From Patescibacteria group bacterium (GTDB taxonomy: Bacteria > Patescibacteriota > Saccharimonadia > CAILAD01 > BJGX01): DNA of 42,074 nucleotides. Positions 3,031 through 35,821 of this stretch are shown one piece after another. How positions within the stretch are numbered: position 1 is the stretch's first letter; each line of letters begins with the position of its first letter. The position numbers and the translations under genes were made by a program. The notes under the pieces are model-generated. The model did no database searches, was not told the origin of the DNA, and worked only from the letters and a program-made list of their open reading frames with translations. The DNA lies in NCBI GenBank assembly GCA_009691555.1, contig SICB01000001.1, forward strand, positions 1 through 42,074, written 5' to 3'.

Positions 3031-3103
3031 TCCGCTCGGCGTGGTAGCCTAGATACTAAAGCTAAGAAAGCTTATTTTAATTATTTCCTAATTATTATCA
3101 ACC

Positions 3104-3149
3104 AATCTCATTAGTCATCACTTTTGCTGCCAAAAGTAATATAAAACCA
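3104..3149. repeat. Hairpin module (H) of the intergenic repeat family, locus A copy 1
   Basis: The sequence aatctcattagTCatcACTTTTGctgcCAAAAGTaatataaaacca has a 7-bp stem (3120-3126 with 3131-3137) and a 4-nt loop. It is near-identical to the modules at 32691-32758 and 33113-33180. Confidence 0.85.
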
Positions 3150-3303
3150 ACCGACTGTGGCTCGCCCCAATAAGCGCCCCAGCCTACCGAACAATCTTTA
3201 TCCAGAATAAACTTGCCCTGAATGTTAACACTTCAGGGCTTCAGACAATCCTGGATAATGATTAGTCCGTTAGCCTGTTGCTTTCTTGGAGCTCGATGTC
3301 GGT
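3150..3303. repeat. 154-nt conserved intergenic core element, copy A (candidate structured RNA or MITE-like element)
   Basis: Same length as 32918-33071, with 8 differences by eye (about 95% identity). Closing inverted repeat is accgac...gtcggt. An internal hairpin lies at 3215-3239 (gccctgaa..ttcagggc), flanked by the inverted pair ttatccag/ctggataa. Confidence 0.85.
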
Positions 3304-3376
3304 GAGGGAAGCGCACCTGCGGCAATAGTTGCTTTTTAATTATTATTAGCTAGTCTCACTAATTATCTCTATTCAG

Positions 3377-3404
3377 ATACCACTTTTGATACCAAAAGTG
3401 GTAT
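3377..3404. repeat. Perfect 12-bp palindromic hairpin, a variant H module (locus A copy 2)
   Basis: ATACCACTTTTG-atac-CAAAAGTGGTAT. It shares the CACTTTTG/CAAAAGTG core with the other H modules and lies about 30 nt upstream of the lnt-like start. Confidence 0.85.
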
Positions 3405-3434
3405 TAAATAAAAAATAATAAAACATAAAAGTGA

Positions 3435-5102
3435 GTGATGCTAGCTTGGTCGTCTAAAGACCACAAAAGAAATCTGGGAGGAGCGCGACTAGGTGCTATA
3501 ATTAAAGAAGCATTAGGAGATTTAATAATCAAACTCAAAGCCCTAGTAAGATTCAAGCACTTCGATTGGCACAGCCTAGCACTAATAATTGCTAGTGGAG
3601 TATTATTATCGCTGCCGTTTGTGCGCTACCAGCTCGGCTGGCTCAGCTTTTTTAGCCTGCTACCGCTACTAGCCCTATTGCAGCGCCTACGAGCGCAAAA
3701 GGCTTCCAGCAAGCGAATTGTGGCGAGTATTTTGCTGGCCGGAGCAATCGATATGTCGATAGTCCTCACCTGGATGTACCAGCTCAATACCGTAGATCTG
3801 CTACAAGACCCACTGACGCGCGCCGTATTTGTGCCTTTCACTCTGGGGCTGATGGTGCTGTTTTTTGCATCGGGGTTTTTGATTTTTGGCTGGCTGGTCG
3901 TAAGGCTCAAAATATCGCTCGACAACAAAAACTCTTTTTTGTTGCTGCCGGCCGCTTGGGTGTTCGGTGAGTTTGCCCGCAGTGTGTTTTTTTCGATTAT
4001 GATGCTAGGCGAGGGCGGAGCTGTCGGTATGCACTGGAACTTCGGTGCGCTGGGGCTGGCAGCTAGTGCCACACCGCTGGTGTATTTTTCAAGGCTTGGC
4101 GGCCTCTTTGGGCTGAGCTTCGTGGTGGTGCTAGCTAATATTGCAATTTTTCAGCTGTGGCGCAGAAAGTTCGTTAAAGTTTCGGTGCTCATCATCGCTA
4201 GCATCGTCATTGCGACTGCGCTAGCGTATTATTTGTACCGTGCGCCATCAAATCCTGCCATCGAGCGGATTGGGTTGGTTCATTTGGGCTCCAACGAAGA
4301 TACCGATTACCAGCAGCCGCTGATCCGATCTATAAAAGACAACGCCAGTGGCAGGCTCGCTACAGTGATATTCCCAGAGTATTCGCACTTGTTTGACGAA
4401 CCCAGATTGCTCGATGAAGATCGCCAAATAGCCCAGCTGCTACTCAAAAATGAAGGAAGCAGAATAATTACCTCCAGGACTATATCTGCAGTAAAGACCG
4501 AGACAAATGCTATTGTAGAACTCGATGTATCGGGCCGGCAAATCAGCGCTCAGGGCAAGACCTTTTTGATACCAGGCGGAGAGTACATACCGTACCTCTA
4601 TAAGGGCATCCTGATTGCCTCCGGCAACTATCGGCTGATAGCCTACCATGAAGGCGAAAAGACAGTCGCTCAGTCCAAAAAACCAATCGAGCCAATCACG
4701 ATTAATGGAGTCAGCTATGGCGTGCTGGCCTGTTCGGGCATTATTGCCCCCGAGTACTATCGGGAGCTCACCAACCGCGGTGCCGAGGTGCTAGTAAACG
4801 CCGCCTCGCTCTCGACGATGGGCATAGGAGCGCAGTTTTTTGACCAGGCCAAGCAAATGGCTCGTTTTCAGGCCGTCGCTAATGCCCGGACACTAGTTCA
4901 GTCGGCCAGAGGTAAGCAATCTTATATAATGAGCCAAAACGGCACCATCCAGATACAAAATGCGTCTGACAGCACTAGCTATATGCAGGGCTCCATACAG
5001 CCCAACAGTACCCGCACTATCTACACCCTGCTCGGCGAATGGACTGTGCTGGCGAGCTTCGTCGGGCTGGTTGTATTTGCTTACATCAATAAAAAAAGCT
5101 AA
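3435..5102 (+). CDS. lnt: Apolipoprotein N-acyltransferase-like protein (polytopic membrane domain plus CN-hydrolase domain)
   Basis: The N-terminal half is multi-TM. The C-terminal nitrilase-type domain shows an E-K-C triad context: VIFPEYS, GKTFLIPGGEYIPY (compare KHHLVPFGEFVP in E. coli Lnt) and VLACSGII. The start is either GTG 3435 or ATG 3438. Confidence 0.75.
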   Translation: MMLAWSSKDHKRNLGGARLGAIIKEALGDLIIKLKALVRFKHFDWHSLALIIASGVLLSLPFVRYQLGWLSFFSLLPLLALLQRLRAQKASSKRIVASILLAGAIDMSIVLTWMYQLNTVDLLQDPLTRAVFVPFTLGLMVLFFASGFLIFGWLVVRLKISLDNKNSFLLLPAAWVFGEFARSVFFSIMMLGEGGAVGMHWNFGALGLAASATPLVYFSRLGGLFGLSFVVVLANIAIFQLWRRKFVKVSVLIIASIVIATALAYYLYRAPSNPAIERIGLVHLGSNEDTDYQQPLIRSIKDNASGRLATVIFPEYSHLFDEPRLLDEDRQIAQLLLKNEGSRIITSRTISAVKTETNAIVELDVSGRQISAQGKTFLIPGGEYIPYLYKGILIASGNYRLIAYHEGEKTVAQSKKPIEPITINGVSYGVLACSGIIAPEYYRELTNRGAEVLVNAASLSTMGIGAQFFDQAKQMARFQAVANARTLVQSARGKQSYIMSQNGTIQIQNASDSTSYMQGSIQPNSTRTIYTLLGEWTVLASFVGLVVFAYINKKS

Positions 5103-27589: not shown

Positions 27590-28369
27590 ATGGCTAAGAA
27601 AAAGATTACGATTGAGGGTCTTCGAAAATTCAATATATTTATGTTCGTGTTTTTTGCAATTCAAGTGGCGGTGATGTTTATGATTGCCAATGCCAAGGTT
27701 AAGTTTCCGATTAATGTCAGCTACCTGACATTTAATACCGACACCAAGAGCCTCGACTCCGCCACCAAGGCTATATACCAGCTCCCATTGGTTTGGCCGA
27801 TTCTAGCATTCTTGGTTATTTGTATGCTAGCCCACCTGATAATTTCTACTATCTACTACCGCCGTTACAAAAAAGACCTCAAGGTCGGCATGAACCGAGC
27901 TCGCTGGATAGAATACAGTTTTTCGGCTAGCACCATGATTGTGGCAATTGCACTACTGACGGGCATCTACGACTTAGTTAGTCTAATTTGTTTATTCGCA
28001 CTGGTGATGGTCATGAATCTCTGTGGCCTGATAATGGAAATCCACAACCAAACTACCGAAAAAACAAAGTGGATTAGTTATATCGTGGGCTGTATTGCAG
28101 GCATCGTGCCCTGGATATGTATTGCAATTTATTTTTGGGCCAGTGCTTCTAATTCGACCTCTGGAGCCAAGATACCAGCCTTCGTTTATTGGATATTTAT
28201 TACTATCTTTTTATTTTTCAATTGTTTTGCTATCAACATGTTCTTACAATACAAAAAGTGGGGACCCTGGAAAAACTACCTCTACGGCGAGCGCGTTTAT
28301 ATTATTTTGAGCTTGGTAGCCAAAACGGCCCTAGCCTGGCAGGTATTCGCCGGTACTCTTAGGCCCTAA
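27590..28369 (+). CDS. Heliorhodopsin (7-TM retinal protein, inverted topology)
   Basis: Collinear with the heliorhodopsin 48C12 sequence as I remember it. Matching blocks are NRARWIEYSFSASTMIV (counterion Glu108), GCIAGIVPWICIAIYF, PAFVYWIFITIFLFFNCFA, LQYKKWGPWKNYLYGERVYIILSLVAKTALAWQVFAGTL (Schiff-base Lys245, codon 28322-28324), and His82 in MLAHLIIS. Confidence 0.9.
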   Translation: MAKKKITIEGLRKFNIFMFVFFAIQVAVMFMIANAKVKFPINVSYLTFNTDTKSLDSATKAIYQLPLVWPILAFLVICMLAHLIISTIYYRRYKKDLKVGMNRARWIEYSFSASTMIVAIALLTGIYDLVSLICLFALVMVMNLCGLIMEIHNQTTEKTKWISYIVGCIAGIVPWICIAIYFWASASNSTSGAKIPAFVYWIFITIFLFFNCFAINMFLQYKKWGPWKNYLYGERVYIILSLVAKTALAWQVFAGTLRP

Positions 28370-28470: not shown

Positions 28471-29649
28471 TCAGCTACCAACAATATATAGCTCTTGTTC
28501 GGCCCTGGTGACTGCGGTATATAGCCAGCGTTGCCATTCGTCTTGGCTCATTTTGGGAAAGCGTTCTTCAAAAACCAAGACTCGCTTGGCCTGTGAGCCT
28601 TGGGCCTTATGAACGGTCAGCCCATAGCCAAAATCAAATAGACCGACAACATCTTTTTTGGATCTCTTGGGCAATGTCTTGATGGTTGCGGCAGCTCCAA
28701 ATTGCTCCCGCGGAGCAAAGCCCTCAAAGCTCACGCCGTCGAAGTCGGCCGTGATATTCCACCATAGCAAATCGTTATCATTTGGCACCGATGCGATATT
28801 TGTGATAATGCCAATTTGCCCGTTGCTCAAACCCGTCTCGCGGCTATTGCGCAAACAAACGATAGTATCATTGCGCTGCGGGTCTGGGCCTTCGAAACCC
28901 TTGAGTTCGCGAACATGGCTATTGAGCTTTTGGCGGGTACTGTTGTAGCCACACAAAACCAAGGTGTCGGCATCGTGGCTTTCCAATATGGCTTGCACGG
29001 CGTCGCCGGTGACAGGATCGTTTCGGTCGAGCTTTTCAACACCCTCACCATAGGCTTTAATTGGTATCGCCTGCCCGCTACGAGCCATTGTCGATATCGC
29101 AATTATTGGGCTATCGGCCGCCTGGCGCCATATTTTGTCGAGCTTAATCTCGGGCTCTAGCATCAGGTTGAAGTTGTTGCCAATTGGTGGCAACTGACCG
29201 TGGTCGCCAACCGCCAGCACCGGCTTACCAAAACTCAAGAGGTCGTTCCATATATCCTCGCTCACCATGCTGGCTTCATCGACTATAATTATATCGACCT
29301 TTAGCGAGTCACGCTTGCGCCATTTCAGGACATCACCCTTGCCGGTTTCAGAATAGTACATCAGACTATGGAGGGTCGATATCGAATCGCCCGGCCGTAG
29401 TATCTTGTCTTCAACGAGTTTGCGTTTTAATACCAAAGCCGCCTTGCCTGTAAAGGCCGCAAAGCCCACTTTGGTGGTGGGCATATTGGCGGTTAATACC
29501 TGACGCAAGGTTGCAATCAGAGTAGTTTTGCCTGTGCCGGCATAGCCACCGAGAGTGATATATTGTGGGCCACCTTTATTGTAAGACTTGAGCCAGGCAC
29601 CAATCGCACTTAGCGCGGCAGCTTGTTGGTTTGTAAATTTTTGCATCAC
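28471..29649 (-). CDS. Compact SF1B RecD/Dda/Pif1-like ATP-dependent DNA helicase (392 aa)
   Basis: Walker A GGYAGTGKTT, Walker B IIIVDEASMV, VGDHGQLPPI and TVHKAQGSQA. It has no extra nuclease or N-terminal domains. Confidence 0.8.
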   Translation of the reverse strand: MMQKFTNQQAAALSAIGAWLKSYNKGGPQYITLGGYAGTGKTTLIATLRQVLTANMPTTKVGFAAFTGKAALVLKRKLVEDKILRPGDSISTLHSLMYYSETGKGDVLKWRKRDSLKVDIIIVDEASMVSEDIWNDLLSFGKPVLAVGDHGQLPPIGNNFNLMLEPEIKLDKIWRQAADSPIIAISTMARSGQAIPIKAYGEGVEKLDRNDPVTGDAVQAILESHDADTLVLCGYNSTRQKLNSHVRELKGFEGPDPQRNDTIVCLRNSRETGLSNGQIGIITNIASVPNDNDLLWWNITADFDGVSFEGFAPREQFGAAATIKTLPKRSKKDVVGLFDFGYGLTVHKAQGSQAKRVLVFEERFPKMSQDEWQRWLYTAVTRAEQELYIVGS

Positions 29650-32592: not shown

Positions 32593-32601
32593 ATTATAGC
32601 A
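32593..32601 (-). promoter_or_regulatory. Extended -10 element TGcTATAAT upstream of rplU
   Basis: The minus-strand reading of 32593-32601 is TGCTATAAT. It predicts a leader of about 40 nt carrying the SD. Confidence 0.45.
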
Positions 32602-32690
32602 CTAAAATAGGTGCGTTGTAAAGAACAAAATGCTCTGCGGTTGCTTGCTTGAGAGAGCGCTCAGAGTTTTTTCTTTGTAGTCTTTATAGA

Positions 32691-32758
32691 TTATTTTTTT
32701 AATTAATCTCATTAGCTATCACTTTTGATGGCAAAAGTAATATAAAACCAGCCGACTT
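32691..32758. repeat. Hairpin module H, locus B copy 1 (68 nt, identical to 33113-33180)
   Basis: ttatttttttaattaatctcattagctatcACTTTTGatggCAAAAGTaatataaaaccagccgactt is a perfect 68-nt direct repeat of the third copy. Confidence 0.9.
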
Positions 32759-32770
32759 CTAATTGATTAT

Positions 32771-32837
32771 AGCTCGCCCCAATAAGCGCCCCAGGCTACC
32801 GAACAATCTTGATCTAAGAATAAACTTGCCCTGAATG
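32771..32837. repeat. Truncated, degraded 5' half of the 154-nt core element
   Basis: agctcgccccaataagcgccccaggctaccgaacaatcttgatctaagaataaacttgccctgaatg matches the first ~65 nt of the core. It has one indel and a 14-nt replacement of the gtg junction, and it breaks inside the internal hairpin. Confidence 0.8.
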
Positions 32838-32885
32838 CTAATTGGCTATCAATAATAATTGTTTTTATATTAATATCATTAATTA

Positions 32886-32907
32886 CCACTTTTGGTATCA
32901 AAAGTGG
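32886..32907. repeat. Variant H palindrome, locus B copy 2
   Basis: CCACTTTTG-gtat-CAAAAGTGG forms a 9-bp stem. Confidence 0.85.
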
Positions 32908-32917
32908 AGCAAAAATA

Positions 32918-33071
32918 GCCGACTGTGGCTCGCCCCAATAAGCGCCCCAGGCTACCGCACAATCTTGATCCAGAATAAACTTGCCCTGAATATTAACATT
33001 TCAGGGCTTCAAACAATCCTGGATAATGATTAGTCCGTTAGCCTGTTGCTTTCTTGGAGCTCGATGTCGGC
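32918..33071. repeat. 154-nt conserved intergenic core element, copy B (candidate structured RNA or MITE-like element)
   Basis: The full-length counterpart of 3150-3303. Closing inverted repeat is gccgac...gtcggc, and the internal hairpin lies at 32983-33007. Confidence 0.85.
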
Positions 33072-33112
33072 AGAAACCAGCAGAGGACAGAGTACATTTA
33101 CAGCAATAATAA

Positions 33113-33180
33113 TTATTTTTTTAATTAATCTCATTAGCTATCACTTTTGATGGCAAAAGTAATATAAAACCAGCCGACTT
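33113..33180. repeat. Hairpin module H, locus B copy 3
   Basis: Identical over 68 nt to 32691-32758. It ends about 55 nt upstream of parA. Confidence 0.9.
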
Positions 33181-33235
33181 ATGGGTTAACACGACTATCA
33201 AATATCGGCGCCTAACCTGCTATAATTAGTAGCAT

Positions 33236-34000
33236 ATGGAAAGCTCAAAAAAAGTCATATCAATTGCTAATCAAAAAGGCGGAGTCGGTAAAACCACCAC
33301 CACTATTAGCGTCGCCTCCTACTTAGCTAGGTTTGGCCATAAGGTGCTTTTGGTCGATCTCGACCCTCAGGGCAACAGCACCAGCGGGCTGGCAATCAAT
33401 AAACAGGCGCTCAAGGCTAGTATTTATAACGTGCTGGTCGACAAGACCCCCGTCGCCGAAGTAATCATTAAAACCAAAATCAAGAATCTCGATATTATTC
33501 CTGCTAAGTCGGAGCTAGCCGCCGCCGAAGTCGAGGTTTCGTCTACCCCCGGCCGAGAAAAGATTTTAAAACTAGCGCTTCGGCATTTGCAGTACGATGT
33601 AATTATTATCGACTGCCCACCGTCGCTGGGATTGCTAACAATCAACGCCTTCGTGGCCAGCGATTCGGTCATTATACCCGTCCAGAGCGAGTACTATGCC
33701 CTAGAGGGCCTCTCGGAGCTACTCGATACCATCAAGCGCGTTCGGGTTGGGCTAAACCCAAGGCTCGATATCTTGGGTCTGGTGGTTACCATGCATAATC
33801 GCCGGACCAGCCTTGGCGAGCAGGTATTAGAGGAAATCAAGAAGCATTTTCCATCTAAAATATTTGACACCGTAATACCTCGCAATATACGATTAGCAGA
33901 AGCACCCAGCCATGGTAAGCCAATATACGAGTACGACAGGTTTTCCAAGGGCGCCCAGGCTTACAAGAAATTGACCAAAGAAATAGAAAAGAGGCTATAG
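33236..34000 (+). CDS. parA: Chromosome partitioning ATPase ParA/Soj
   Basis: Deviant Walker A NQKGGVGKTTT, DLDPQGN and IIIDCPPS. A TATAAT lies at 33221-33226, 10 nt before the ATG, and no SD is present. Confidence 0.9.
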   Translation: MESSKKVISIANQKGGVGKTTTTISVASYLARFGHKVLLVDLDPQGNSTSGLAINKQALKASIYNVLVDKTPVAEVIIKTKIKNLDIIPAKSELAAAEVEVSSTPGREKILKLALRHLQYDVIIIDCPPSLGLLTINAFVASDSVIIPVQSEYYALEGLSELLDTIKRVRVGLNPRLDILGLVVTMHNRRTSLGEQVLEEIKKHFPSKIFDTVIPRNIRLAEAPSHGKPIYEYDRFSKGAQAYKKLTKEIEKRL

Positions 34001-34004
34001 CATC

Positions 34005-34898
34005 ATGAGTTCAACCAACCGATTAGGCCGAGGCTTAGATGCCCTAATACCAAGCGATATCGACGATTTTGTGGCCGCTAGTCTGCCCCAGCAGCTCAAG
34101 ACCGACAAAAACAACATCCTGGAGCTCAACCCTGCCGATATTTTGCCGAATCCCCACCAACCCCGAACTGATTTTTCGAGAACCGACCTCGACGGCTTAG
34201 CGCAGAGTATTAAGCAACACGGTATATTGCAGCCGATAATCGTCATTGAAACCAACGCCGGAGTGTACCAGCTAATCGCTGGTGAGAGGCGCCTCAGAGC
34301 CGCCAAACAGCTGGGTCTAACAACAATACCATCGATTGTGCGGACTTTTTCCGAACAAGAGCAGCTAGAGCTAGCTGTTATCGAAAACATCCAACGATCC
34401 GAATTAAAGCCGCTCGAGCTTGCGATTGCGTATACTAAGCTTGTTGATCAGTTCAATATGACGCACGAAGCAATCGCCAAACGTGTCGGCAAAGGGTCCT
34501 CGACAGTTTCAAATTCTATTAGGCTCGTTAATTTGCCACACGCCGCCAAGTTGGCCCTGCAAAAGGATCAAATTACTGAAGGCCACGCCCGGGCCATATT
34601 GTCGCTCGACAATTCGACCGACCAGACCATACTACTAGAGGCAATCATCAAATCTAAGCTGACGGTTCGAGAGGCCGAGGAATTTACCCGCAAACTCAAG
34701 GCTGGCAATCAAATAGAATCGCCGACCAAGGCCAAGACCATCCGAAACCAACACAGTGCTCTCACTACTAGCCTAGGCAAACTGCTCGGTACCAAAGTCA
34801 ATGTGATGCCCACCGCCAGAGGTGGCAGGCTGGTAATTGAGTACTATTCAGATGAAGAGCTGGCGCGCATAGCCGGGCAAATACAAGGCCAAGACTAG
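34005..34898 (+). CDS. parB: Chromosome partitioning protein ParB/Spo0J
   Basis: GLDALIP, PNPHQPR, the ParB box LIAGERRLRAAK, and an HTH region. Confidence 0.9.
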   Translation: MSSTNRLGRGLDALIPSDIDDFVAASLPQQLKTDKNNILELNPADILPNPHQPRTDFSRTDLDGLAQSIKQHGILQPIIVIETNAGVYQLIAGERRLRAAKQLGLTTIPSIVRTFSEQEQLELAVIENIQRSELKPLELAIAYTKLVDQFNMTHEAIAKRVGKGSSTVSNSIRLVNLPHAAKLALQKDQITEGHARAILSLDNSTDQTILLEAIIKSKLTVREAEEFTRKLKAGNQIESPTKAKTIRNQHSALTTSLGKLLGTKVNVMPTARGGRLVIEYYSDEELARIAGQIQGQD

Positions 34899-35732: not shown

Positions 35733-35821
35733 TAGGTCCTATTATAACATTTTAGAATCACTATTTCGATGTAGTTAAAAACTATTTATTAGTACTGCGA
35801 AATCGCCTATAATATAACCAT

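Follow-up and report, generated by a model that had tools for sequence, protein, structure and literature searches.

Interspersed mosaic repeats, probably of a non-autonomous kind, in the intergenic DNA of freshwater Saccharibacteria

Several kinds of short interspersed repeats have been described in bacteria. The repetitive extragenic palindromes (REPs) of Escherichia coli and Pseudomonas, with the bacterial interspersed mosaic elements (BIMEs) and REPINs that contain them, are mobilised by REP-associated tyrosine transposases (RAYTs). They are extragenic, occur in many copies and in either orientation, are often paired, combine a short palindrome with other conserved motifs in mosaics, form in REPINs a longer hairpin of two inverted halves, and persist at orthologous sites while undergoing local rearrangement. 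The ERIC/IRU elements of enterobacteria and the Correia elements of Neisseria are imperfect palindromes of ~125–155 nt, found only between genes, that form stable hairpins on either strand, include truncated and internally interrupted variants, and are oriented independently of the neighbouring genes. Miniature inverted-repeat transposable elements (MITEs) derived from insertion sequences (IS) are small, non-coding and multi-copy, are present or absent at given sites in related genomes, and can be nested. These traits are shared by a repeat, with a palindrome of 20 bp, that we describe here from a 42,074-nt stretch (the window) of contig SICB01000001.1 of a Patescibacteria group bacterium (assembly GCA_009691555.1). 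The genomes of Patescibacteria (the candidate phyla radiation, CPR) are small, densely packed and generally regarded as repeat-poor. In the window, rplU (ribosomal protein L21, 32235–32570, minus strand) and parA (from 33236, plus strand) are separated by 665 bp, a length noted in an earlier sequence-only reading and confirmed by the gene coordinates. We consider it probable that this gap consists of two and a half units of one non-coding mosaic repeat, and that the repeat represents a lineage-restricted family not known before, made up of interspersed, non-autonomous mosaic elements of the MITE, REP-BIME or ERIC kind. The observations that carry this reading are the architecture of the units, their dispersal and restriction to intergenic DNA, the turnover of occupied sites, rearrangement between strains, and a conserved hairpin.

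Copies of the core, the 154–156-nt body of each unit, occur well beyond the window. An exact core 20-mer was found in 12 contigs of four related metagenome-assembled genomes (MAGs; two labelled 'Patescibacteria group bacterium UBA4664', ELA521 and ELA453), with three further matches that were obvious chance matches, and a core 21-mer was found in 41 lake-metagenome contigs. A core profile gave 75 matches in the collected DNA of relatives (sequences designated here by L numbers), nearly all of them over profile positions 1–155, so the core has sharp ends. Alignment of 56 distinct full-length copies gave a mean column identity of 88%. The copies occur alone or in short arrays, reach a density of four within 5 kb and often lie at contig ends, as expected because repeats break assemblies. 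ParB homologues place the wider group in Candidatus Saccharibacteria. The core had no match in viral contigs, phages or plasmids and no blastn match in 5,426 E. coli genomes (E <= 1e-3), and literature searches returned no description of an interspersed repeat family in Saccharibacteria or CPR. The repeat, not described before, is spread among the genomes of one freshwater group of Saccharibacteria.

All 41 copies with a scorable open reading frame (ORF) on both sides are intergenic, lying between tandem (29), divergent (10) or convergent (2) gene pairs; in the tandem gaps the core runs with the genes in 16 cases and against them in 13. The neighbours are ordinary genes (IF-2/rbfA, lnt, rplU, parAB, signal peptidase, LytR, pilD, pilins, VKOR), and the whole 42-kb window is housekeeping DNA. 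A partner gene beside the cores was considered and rejected: the flanked ORFs of ~245 aa resemble pilins, and there is nothing unusual about pilD or the remaining neighbours.

The decisive evidence for a family of this kind is the turnover of its sites. Between the S26 signal peptidase and LytR-family genes, the window is empty (35733–35821), while units occupy this site in six relatives, with one orientation (~310 bp) in L004, L041, L048 and L053 and the opposite one in L055 and L011. In L055, a newer unit is nested in the remains of an older one. Simple inversion, as in an inverton, was rejected for this site, since the sequences show nesting or replacement and no clean flip. Outgroup Saccharibacteria (ParB 69–71% and syntenic DNA 67–72% identical) keep the gene order lipase-rplU-parA-parB-S26-LytR with rplU-parA gaps of 106, 112 and 143 bp, and have no core or palindrome-plus-core in 15–21 kb. 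One of these outgroup MAGs, CALRDO01 (L064), holds the family on other contigs (L002, L007, L009), which indicates that the family is common to both lineages and the occupied sites are not. The repeat therefore behaves as mobile or recombining DNA, and not as a gene with one fixed site or as a local duplication.

Rearrangement extends to strains of one species. Four contigs that are 97.8% identical to the window (one of them GCA_943353255.1) have an rplU-parA gap of 523 or 534 bp, composed of an H module (the AT-rich arm, palindrome and spacer that precede a core), one core, a tail and a second H module. These gaps are 131–142 bp shorter than that of the window, whose surplus, an arm, a palindrome and a half-core, is attached to the first core at its apical loop. 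The 523- and 534-bp alleles differ by a 12-nt insert variant at core position 7, for a net difference of 11 bp. Likewise, L065/L066 and L067 encode the same ParB and differ in site content, with a window-type double unit versus a single inverted core.

Each unit has the order AT-rich arm, palindrome (CACTTTTG-N4-CAAAAGTG), A-rich spacer of 11–12 nt, core, and purine-rich tail of 9 to ~120 nt. In every copy the palindrome ends 11–12 nt 5' of the first core base, and this fixed spacing implies that H and core form a single unit. Two main spacer forms occur, ATATAAAACCA (type 1) and GAGCAAAA(AT/CC)A (type 2), and they go with the extension of the palindrome, ATCAC...GTGAT versus CCAC...GTGG. The arm 5' of the palindrome often holds 1–4 copies of the small palindromic motif TAATCTCATTA; other flavours exist, one of which terminates in approximately the last 25 nt of a core. 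In tandem form, TAATCTCATTA(AC) is iterated 2–4 times with a period of ~14 nt (L021 286–360, L045 577–660, and 5' of the L047 and L023 cores), and the iteration number differs from locus to locus. The tail is exactly 9 nt in 11 contexts, and (CAGACAA)n is common in it. Heptamer tracts of (CAGACAA)n or (GGCAGCAAACAACGGAGA)n, with repeat numbers that vary between copies, are seen at L001 1407–1455, L009 7192–7240 and L048 144–230, and look like slippage-prone microsatellite DNA.

The junctions between modules recur. The motif YAAAAGY follows the tail in 46 of 59 distinct contexts, as a half-palindrome leading into an arm in 32 and as a full palindrome in 14, so that direct CAAAAGTG octamers flank the segment spacer-core-tail on both sides. 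Another recurrent junction follows core position 7 (ACCGACT): 56 contexts run on into the core, six, the truncated copy of the window among them, carry the 12-nt insert TCTAGTTGAYTA at this point, and the parA-side end of the array stops exactly here. These recurrent junctions make the units a mosaic of modules, much as in BIMEs.

The rplU-parA gap shows this mosaic in full, all on the plus strand. It begins with H module 1 (32690–32750), comprising an AT-rich arm with TAATCTCATTA at 32704–32714, the palindrome CACTTTTGATGGCAAAAGTA at 32720–32739 and the 11-nt spacer ATATAAAACCA at 32740–32750. The truncated core that follows (32751–32842) is a 5' half, equivalent to profile positions 1–80, with the profile match covering 32765–32842; it bears the 12-nt insertion TCTAATTGATTA after GCCGACT and breaks off in the apical loop. 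In conspecific strains L061 and L063 this insert-bearing variant is full-length. The second unit has the arm TTGGCTATCAATAATAATTGTTTTTATATTAATATCATTAATTAC (32843–32886; the same junction is found in L065), palindrome CACTTTTGGTATCAAAAGTG at 32887–32906 with the type-2 spacer GAGCAAAAATA extending to 32917, a full core of 154 nt (32918–33071) that forms a long imperfect hairpin with the termini GCCGAC...GTCGGC, and a purine-rich tail and outer arm, AGAAACCAGCAGAGGACAGAGTACATTTACAGCAATAATA (33072–33111). H module 3 (33112–33180) has its palindrome at 33142–33161 and closes with core positions 1–7, GCCGACT, at 33173–33179; beyond it lies unique parA-upstream DNA.

The modules listed in the sequence-only reading were all present at, or within 1–7 nt of, the places it had given, and the identity of the first and last H that it had reported holds over 69/69 positions (32690–32758 and 33112–33180, by repeat finder). 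The variant H at 32857–32925 is 71% identical and an H copy at 3089–3157 is 78% identical. The full core matches a second copy at 3150–3303 with 96% identity, or 89% over 199 nt including H. A search of the whole window with the palindrome CACTTTTGNNNNCAAAAGT, allowing one mismatch, gave 10 strand-matches at five sites versus 0.00 expected (100 shuffles). A small ORF at 32842–33033 was rejected as a real gene, as it has no Pfam family and copies differ by 1-nt indels. A CRISPR array had been discounted from the outset, correctly so, since the segments between the palindromes are homologous to one another and are not unique spacers.

At the second locus of the window, between rbfA and lnt, an H-core-H arrangement had been proposed for 3104–3404. 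An H module (3089–3149; palindrome CACTTTTGCTGCCAAAAGTA at 3119–3138, spacer at 3139–3149) and a full core (3150–3303, by profile match and core alignment) are indeed present, followed by tail and arm (3304–3380), all on the plus strand. The right end is instead a solo palindrome (3381–3400) with an AT-rich arm of another flavour, together spanning 3381–3447 on the plus strand, and is no full H copy; the end of this arm is related to the core 3' end. The predicted GTG start (3435) of the lnt-like ORF falls within the repeat arm (3401–3447), and the arm around this start recurs elsewhere, for example in L030 and L053. The start codon is probably mis-called, or else the repeat arm provides the 5' end or promoter of the gene. 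In the outer arm 3' of the core, a weak hairpin resembling an intrinsic terminator with a T run lies at 3319–3342 on the plus strand (GCGGCAATAGTTGC then TTTTTAATTA), and many arms hold GCAGCAATAATAATTG-TTTTT stretches that resemble it.

The folding energy of the core is −60 kcal/mol for the plus strand and −68 kcal/mol for the minus strand (z approximately −6.7 on both), and none of 200 shuffles was as stable. RNAalifold on a MAFFT alignment resolved no more than the terminal and apical helices, the middle being misaligned by indels, so pairs were counted on the minimum-energy structure of a typical copy, scored across the 56 copies. Standard pairs occupy 89.8% of cells, versus 25–44% with the partners slid, and changes on both sides are seen in 13 of 54 pairs, versus 3–6 with the partners slid. 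The covariation score is 0.100 compared with 0.063 in shuffles, and none of 500 shuffles reached the observed value. The hairpin is kept by compensatory changes. Two cautions apply to this covariation: the copies are closely related to one another, and templated correction of quasi-palindromes can give paired changes without selection. The main helix, the most variable part, exists in three co-varying versions, TCCAG/CTGGA, TTTAAGAAT/ATTCTTAAA and CCATAAT/ATTATGG, while the internal loops beside the apical stem (AATAAACTT, CTTCAAACAAT) are almost invariant. In five copies (L025:98, L027:2756, L032:739, L039:6083 and L050:95) the 5' arm of one version is combined with the 3' arm of another, indicating recombination between copies. 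The rplU-parA core of conspecific strains has a disrupted apical stem, with TGCGTGG replacing TCAGGG, which argues against strict constraint on the core.

The fold does not assign a strand. The minus strand folds ~8.6 kcal/mol better in 53 of 56 copies, an advantage that stems from stacking and loop terms and not from G-U pairs: these number 3.0 versus 3.1 per copy on the two strands, and Watson-Crick counts are also equal. Assignment of a strand from G-U pairs was accordingly abandoned, the equal frequencies giving no preference for either.

How such units spread may be proposed from their junctions. The units would be spread and reshuffled in trans by an enzyme encoded elsewhere, by recombination between copies, or by both, with the octamer CAAAAGTG, a half palindrome, and the core terminus ACCGACT as the probable reaction points. 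The property preserved would be the hairpin-forming ability of the core, as single-stranded DNA or as read-through RNA, and by analogy with other intergenic hairpin repeats the hairpin may act on transcript ends, processing or stability. We also entertain, as a speculative and on balance rather unlikely extension, that the palindrome, together with the two fixed breakpoints (CAAAAGTG, and ACCGACT, which lies 18 nt on the 3' side of the hairpin foot), is the signature of a system in which a hairpin guides the transposition or recombination of single-stranded DNA. Such a system would resemble REP/RAYT or IS200/IS605 in its working and be unrelated to them in sequence; it would carry a 155-nt structured module from one intergenic region to another in reduced Patescibacteria genomes, and the module would be kept there because its hairpin, as RNA or DNA, has been co-opted for a host function.

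Of the explanations offered in the sequence-only reading, the MITE or REP-BIME-like element is favoured by the dispersed intergenic copies, filled and empty sites, strain rearrangement, the lack of any Rfam family and the absence of a nearby mobility gene. Several observations nonetheless weigh against placing the repeat among non-autonomous elements. As the sequence-only reading had stated, the window lacks genes for a transposase, integrase or reverse transcriptase; it has no recombinase gene either, and no transposase, recombinase or reverse transcriptase was found among ten scanned neighbour ORFs of relatives. A tblastn search of 542 kb with IS200 TnpA and RAYT (YafM) queries gave no match, a weak test on incomplete genomes. 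Classical terminal inverted repeats accompanied by a variable target duplication are absent from the units; the direct repeat beside them is always the same octamer, and their left and right arms often differ in flavour. Positional copies are on average 93.2% identical, versus 87.2% for mostly coding flanks taken 300–1100 nt away, with the core higher in 39 of 48 pairs (limited to flank identity <97%); between L004 and L048, for example, the core is 96.8% and the flanks 84–87% identical. In a sliding-window profile the entire unit, including the tail, is highly similar, and some coding stretches are equally so. Either selection on the unit or a recent exchange would explain this excess conservation, and the data allow no choice between them. 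Finally, near-invariant loops and a compensated helix fit a structured RNA or DNA used by the host as well as they fit a selfish element.

The likeness to each described class is correspondingly partial. In contrast with REPs, BIMEs and REPINs, the repeat has no sequence similarity in the E. coli genomes searched, resides in a reduced Patescibacteria genome, and shows no GTAG at the foot of the palindrome by eye in the listed 5' sequences (e.g. ...TTAGCTAT, ...TTAAATAC, ...TTAATTAC), for which no pattern search was run; no RAYT was matched in the weak tblastn search just described. The conserved non-palindromic partner of its palindrome, a hairpin of 155 nt, greatly exceeds BIME linker motifs in size. 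The sequences are also unrelated to ERIC and Correia elements. A Correia element is bounded by terminal inverted repeats of 26 bp and a TA duplication, whereas the present termini measure 6 bp (ACCGAC/GTCGGT) and belong to an asymmetric unit with H at one end and a purine-rich tail at the opposite end. ERIC and Correia elements have documented effects on transcripts. Unlike IS-derived MITEs, it has no variable target-site duplication, the CAAAAGTG octamer being the only flanking direct repeat, and comparison of the empty and filled S26/LytR sites shows no site-specific duplication. As to terminal inverted repeats, the core has inverted termini and is over its full length an imperfect palindrome, with outer arms as inverted copies in some units only; the window and the sampled neighbour ORFs hold no transposase, and no parent IS came to light.

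The same features can be read as a multi-copy family of independently transcribed structured small RNAs (sRNAs), with H as promoter and operator (the palindrome) and the core as the RNA, a candidate that the sequence-only reading had put forward and that we judge improbable. Rigid palindrome-core spacing, a core that starts with a purine and the presence of TGATATAAA or TAATAT 7–13 nt upstream in type-1 spacers would suit it, as would the compensatory changes, the nearly invariant internal loops, the higher conservation of the core than of its flanks, and, in every copy, a hairpin followed on the opposite strand by U-rich UGGUUUUAUAU or UAUUUUUGCUC, as in an intrinsic terminator. The −10-like box, however, is confined to type-1 spacers and the U-rich stretch to the opposite strand; the type-2 spacer of about half of the units has no such box. 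A sigma-70 promoter scan of both loci found no promoter aimed at the core, and a terminator scan found none in the rplU-parA array and only the weak hairpin 3' of the rbfA-lnt core. Rfam gave no match at the gathering threshold and, at permissive thresholds, nothing better than E-values of 1.8–7 to unrelated miRNA and snoRNA models, in agreement with the view that the element belongs to no named RNA family; a tRNA/tmRNA scan was also negative. Neither strand is favoured by G-U pairs, syntenic outgroups lack the unit and occupied sites vary between lineages, truncated, nested and chimeric copies are common, and the apical stem is disrupted in a conspecific strain. For the sRNA proposal, the compensated hairpin is thus set against the missing consistent promoter and terminator, the missing strand bias and the outgroups with an empty site.

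There is a slim chance that the units are substrates of site-specific recombination, as in invertons, shufflons or integron cassettes, with crossover at the palindrome by a recombinase whose gene lies elsewhere, and with spacer-core-tail as the segment moved or inverted. Module junctions at CAAAAGTG, H on both sides of units in direct or inverted orientation, opposite core orientations at the same site in closely related genomes, and the location of some arrays within a type IV pilus cluster all speak for this; yet the tail side is mostly a half-site (32/46), an incomplete recombination site, the differences in orientation are nesting or replacement, and a 4-nt centre is short for a tyrosine recombinase site such as lox, FRT or dif. 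Integron attC sites are similar in that imperfect hairpins of similar length alternate with single genes at some loci (e.g. the pilus cluster of L033 and L039), but the core is 88% conserved over its full length and occurs in mixed orientation, its neighbours are housekeeping genes, the window holds no integrase or other recombinase gene, and neither the attC consensus (RYYYAAC / GTTRRRY) nor the R''/R' motifs are present at the core termini ACCGAC...GTCGGY, as read by eye. Very unlikely, in our estimate, is a protein-binding array, centromere- or operator-like, serving the adjacent parAB or flanking promoters. The array abuts parA in every clade member examined, its arms iterate the small palindrome TAATCTCATTA alongside the 20-bp palindrome, and canonical parS (TGTTNCACGTGAAACA, a 16-bp palindrome; <=3 mismatches) is absent from the 42-kb window despite a complete parA-parB (33236–34898). 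This proposal, also raised in the sequence-only reading, is weakened by the fact that most copies adjoin unrelated genes such as pilD, pilins, VKOR and lnt, far from parAB; relatives with the same parAB and a gap of 106–143 bp have no unit, the half-site arrangement of the palindrome is unlike parS (by eye, against the established consensus), and a DnaA-box cluster is absent. An origin of replication was likewise rejected (four DnaA boxes versus eight expected, and a GC-skew without a turn), as was the template or variable repeat of a diversity-generating retroelement (copies intergenic, no reverse transcriptase). A simple local duplication that affects two loci in this genome and no others, the outcome that the sequence-only reading said would undo its interpretation, could account for the identity of the two H copies in the gap and the 96% identity of the two cores; it has virtually no chance of being correct, being refuted by 75 copies on other contigs or in other genomes, many of which have unrelated contexts, with copies in related MAGs and lake metagenomes alike.

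Further observations concern the genes around the copies. In a type IV pilus cluster (pilD and several pilin-like genes), a unit is present in nearly every intergenic region and single pilin genes are bracketed by cores (L033 136–3023; L027; L039 3621–6236; L034 3796–5427). Extended −10-like boxes, TGCTATAAT, lie 5' of several genes (window 33219–33238 and 32593–32601; L004 5540–5560); the box of parA is only 9 nt before its ATG, which suggests a leaderless or near-leaderless mRNA. The window also encodes a heliorhodopsin (27590–28369, plus strand; Pfam PF18761, E 7e-91) at the same position as in all fetched relatives (L057, L059, L060–L064). Between this gene and a thioredoxin-reductase-like gene, the window and conspecifics have a superfamily 1 (SF1) helicase (AAA_30 / UvrD_C_2 / PIF1-like; 28471–29649, minus strand), whereas in the more distant L057, L059 and L064 an amino-acid permease is encoded at this position on the opposite strand, so that one gene has replaced another between lineages.

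For the organisms that carry it, this probable family of non-autonomous mosaic repeats occupies whole intergenic regions, and it breaks metagenome assemblies at contig ends. Its strain-level differences provide a practical marker and are at the same time a source of assembly and annotation errors, as with the lnt start codon placed in a repeat arm. The compensated hairpin, the near-invariant loops and a positional conservation above that of neighbouring genes make the family a candidate domesticated structural element, and it offers a tractable case for the study of repeat persistence in minimal genomes.

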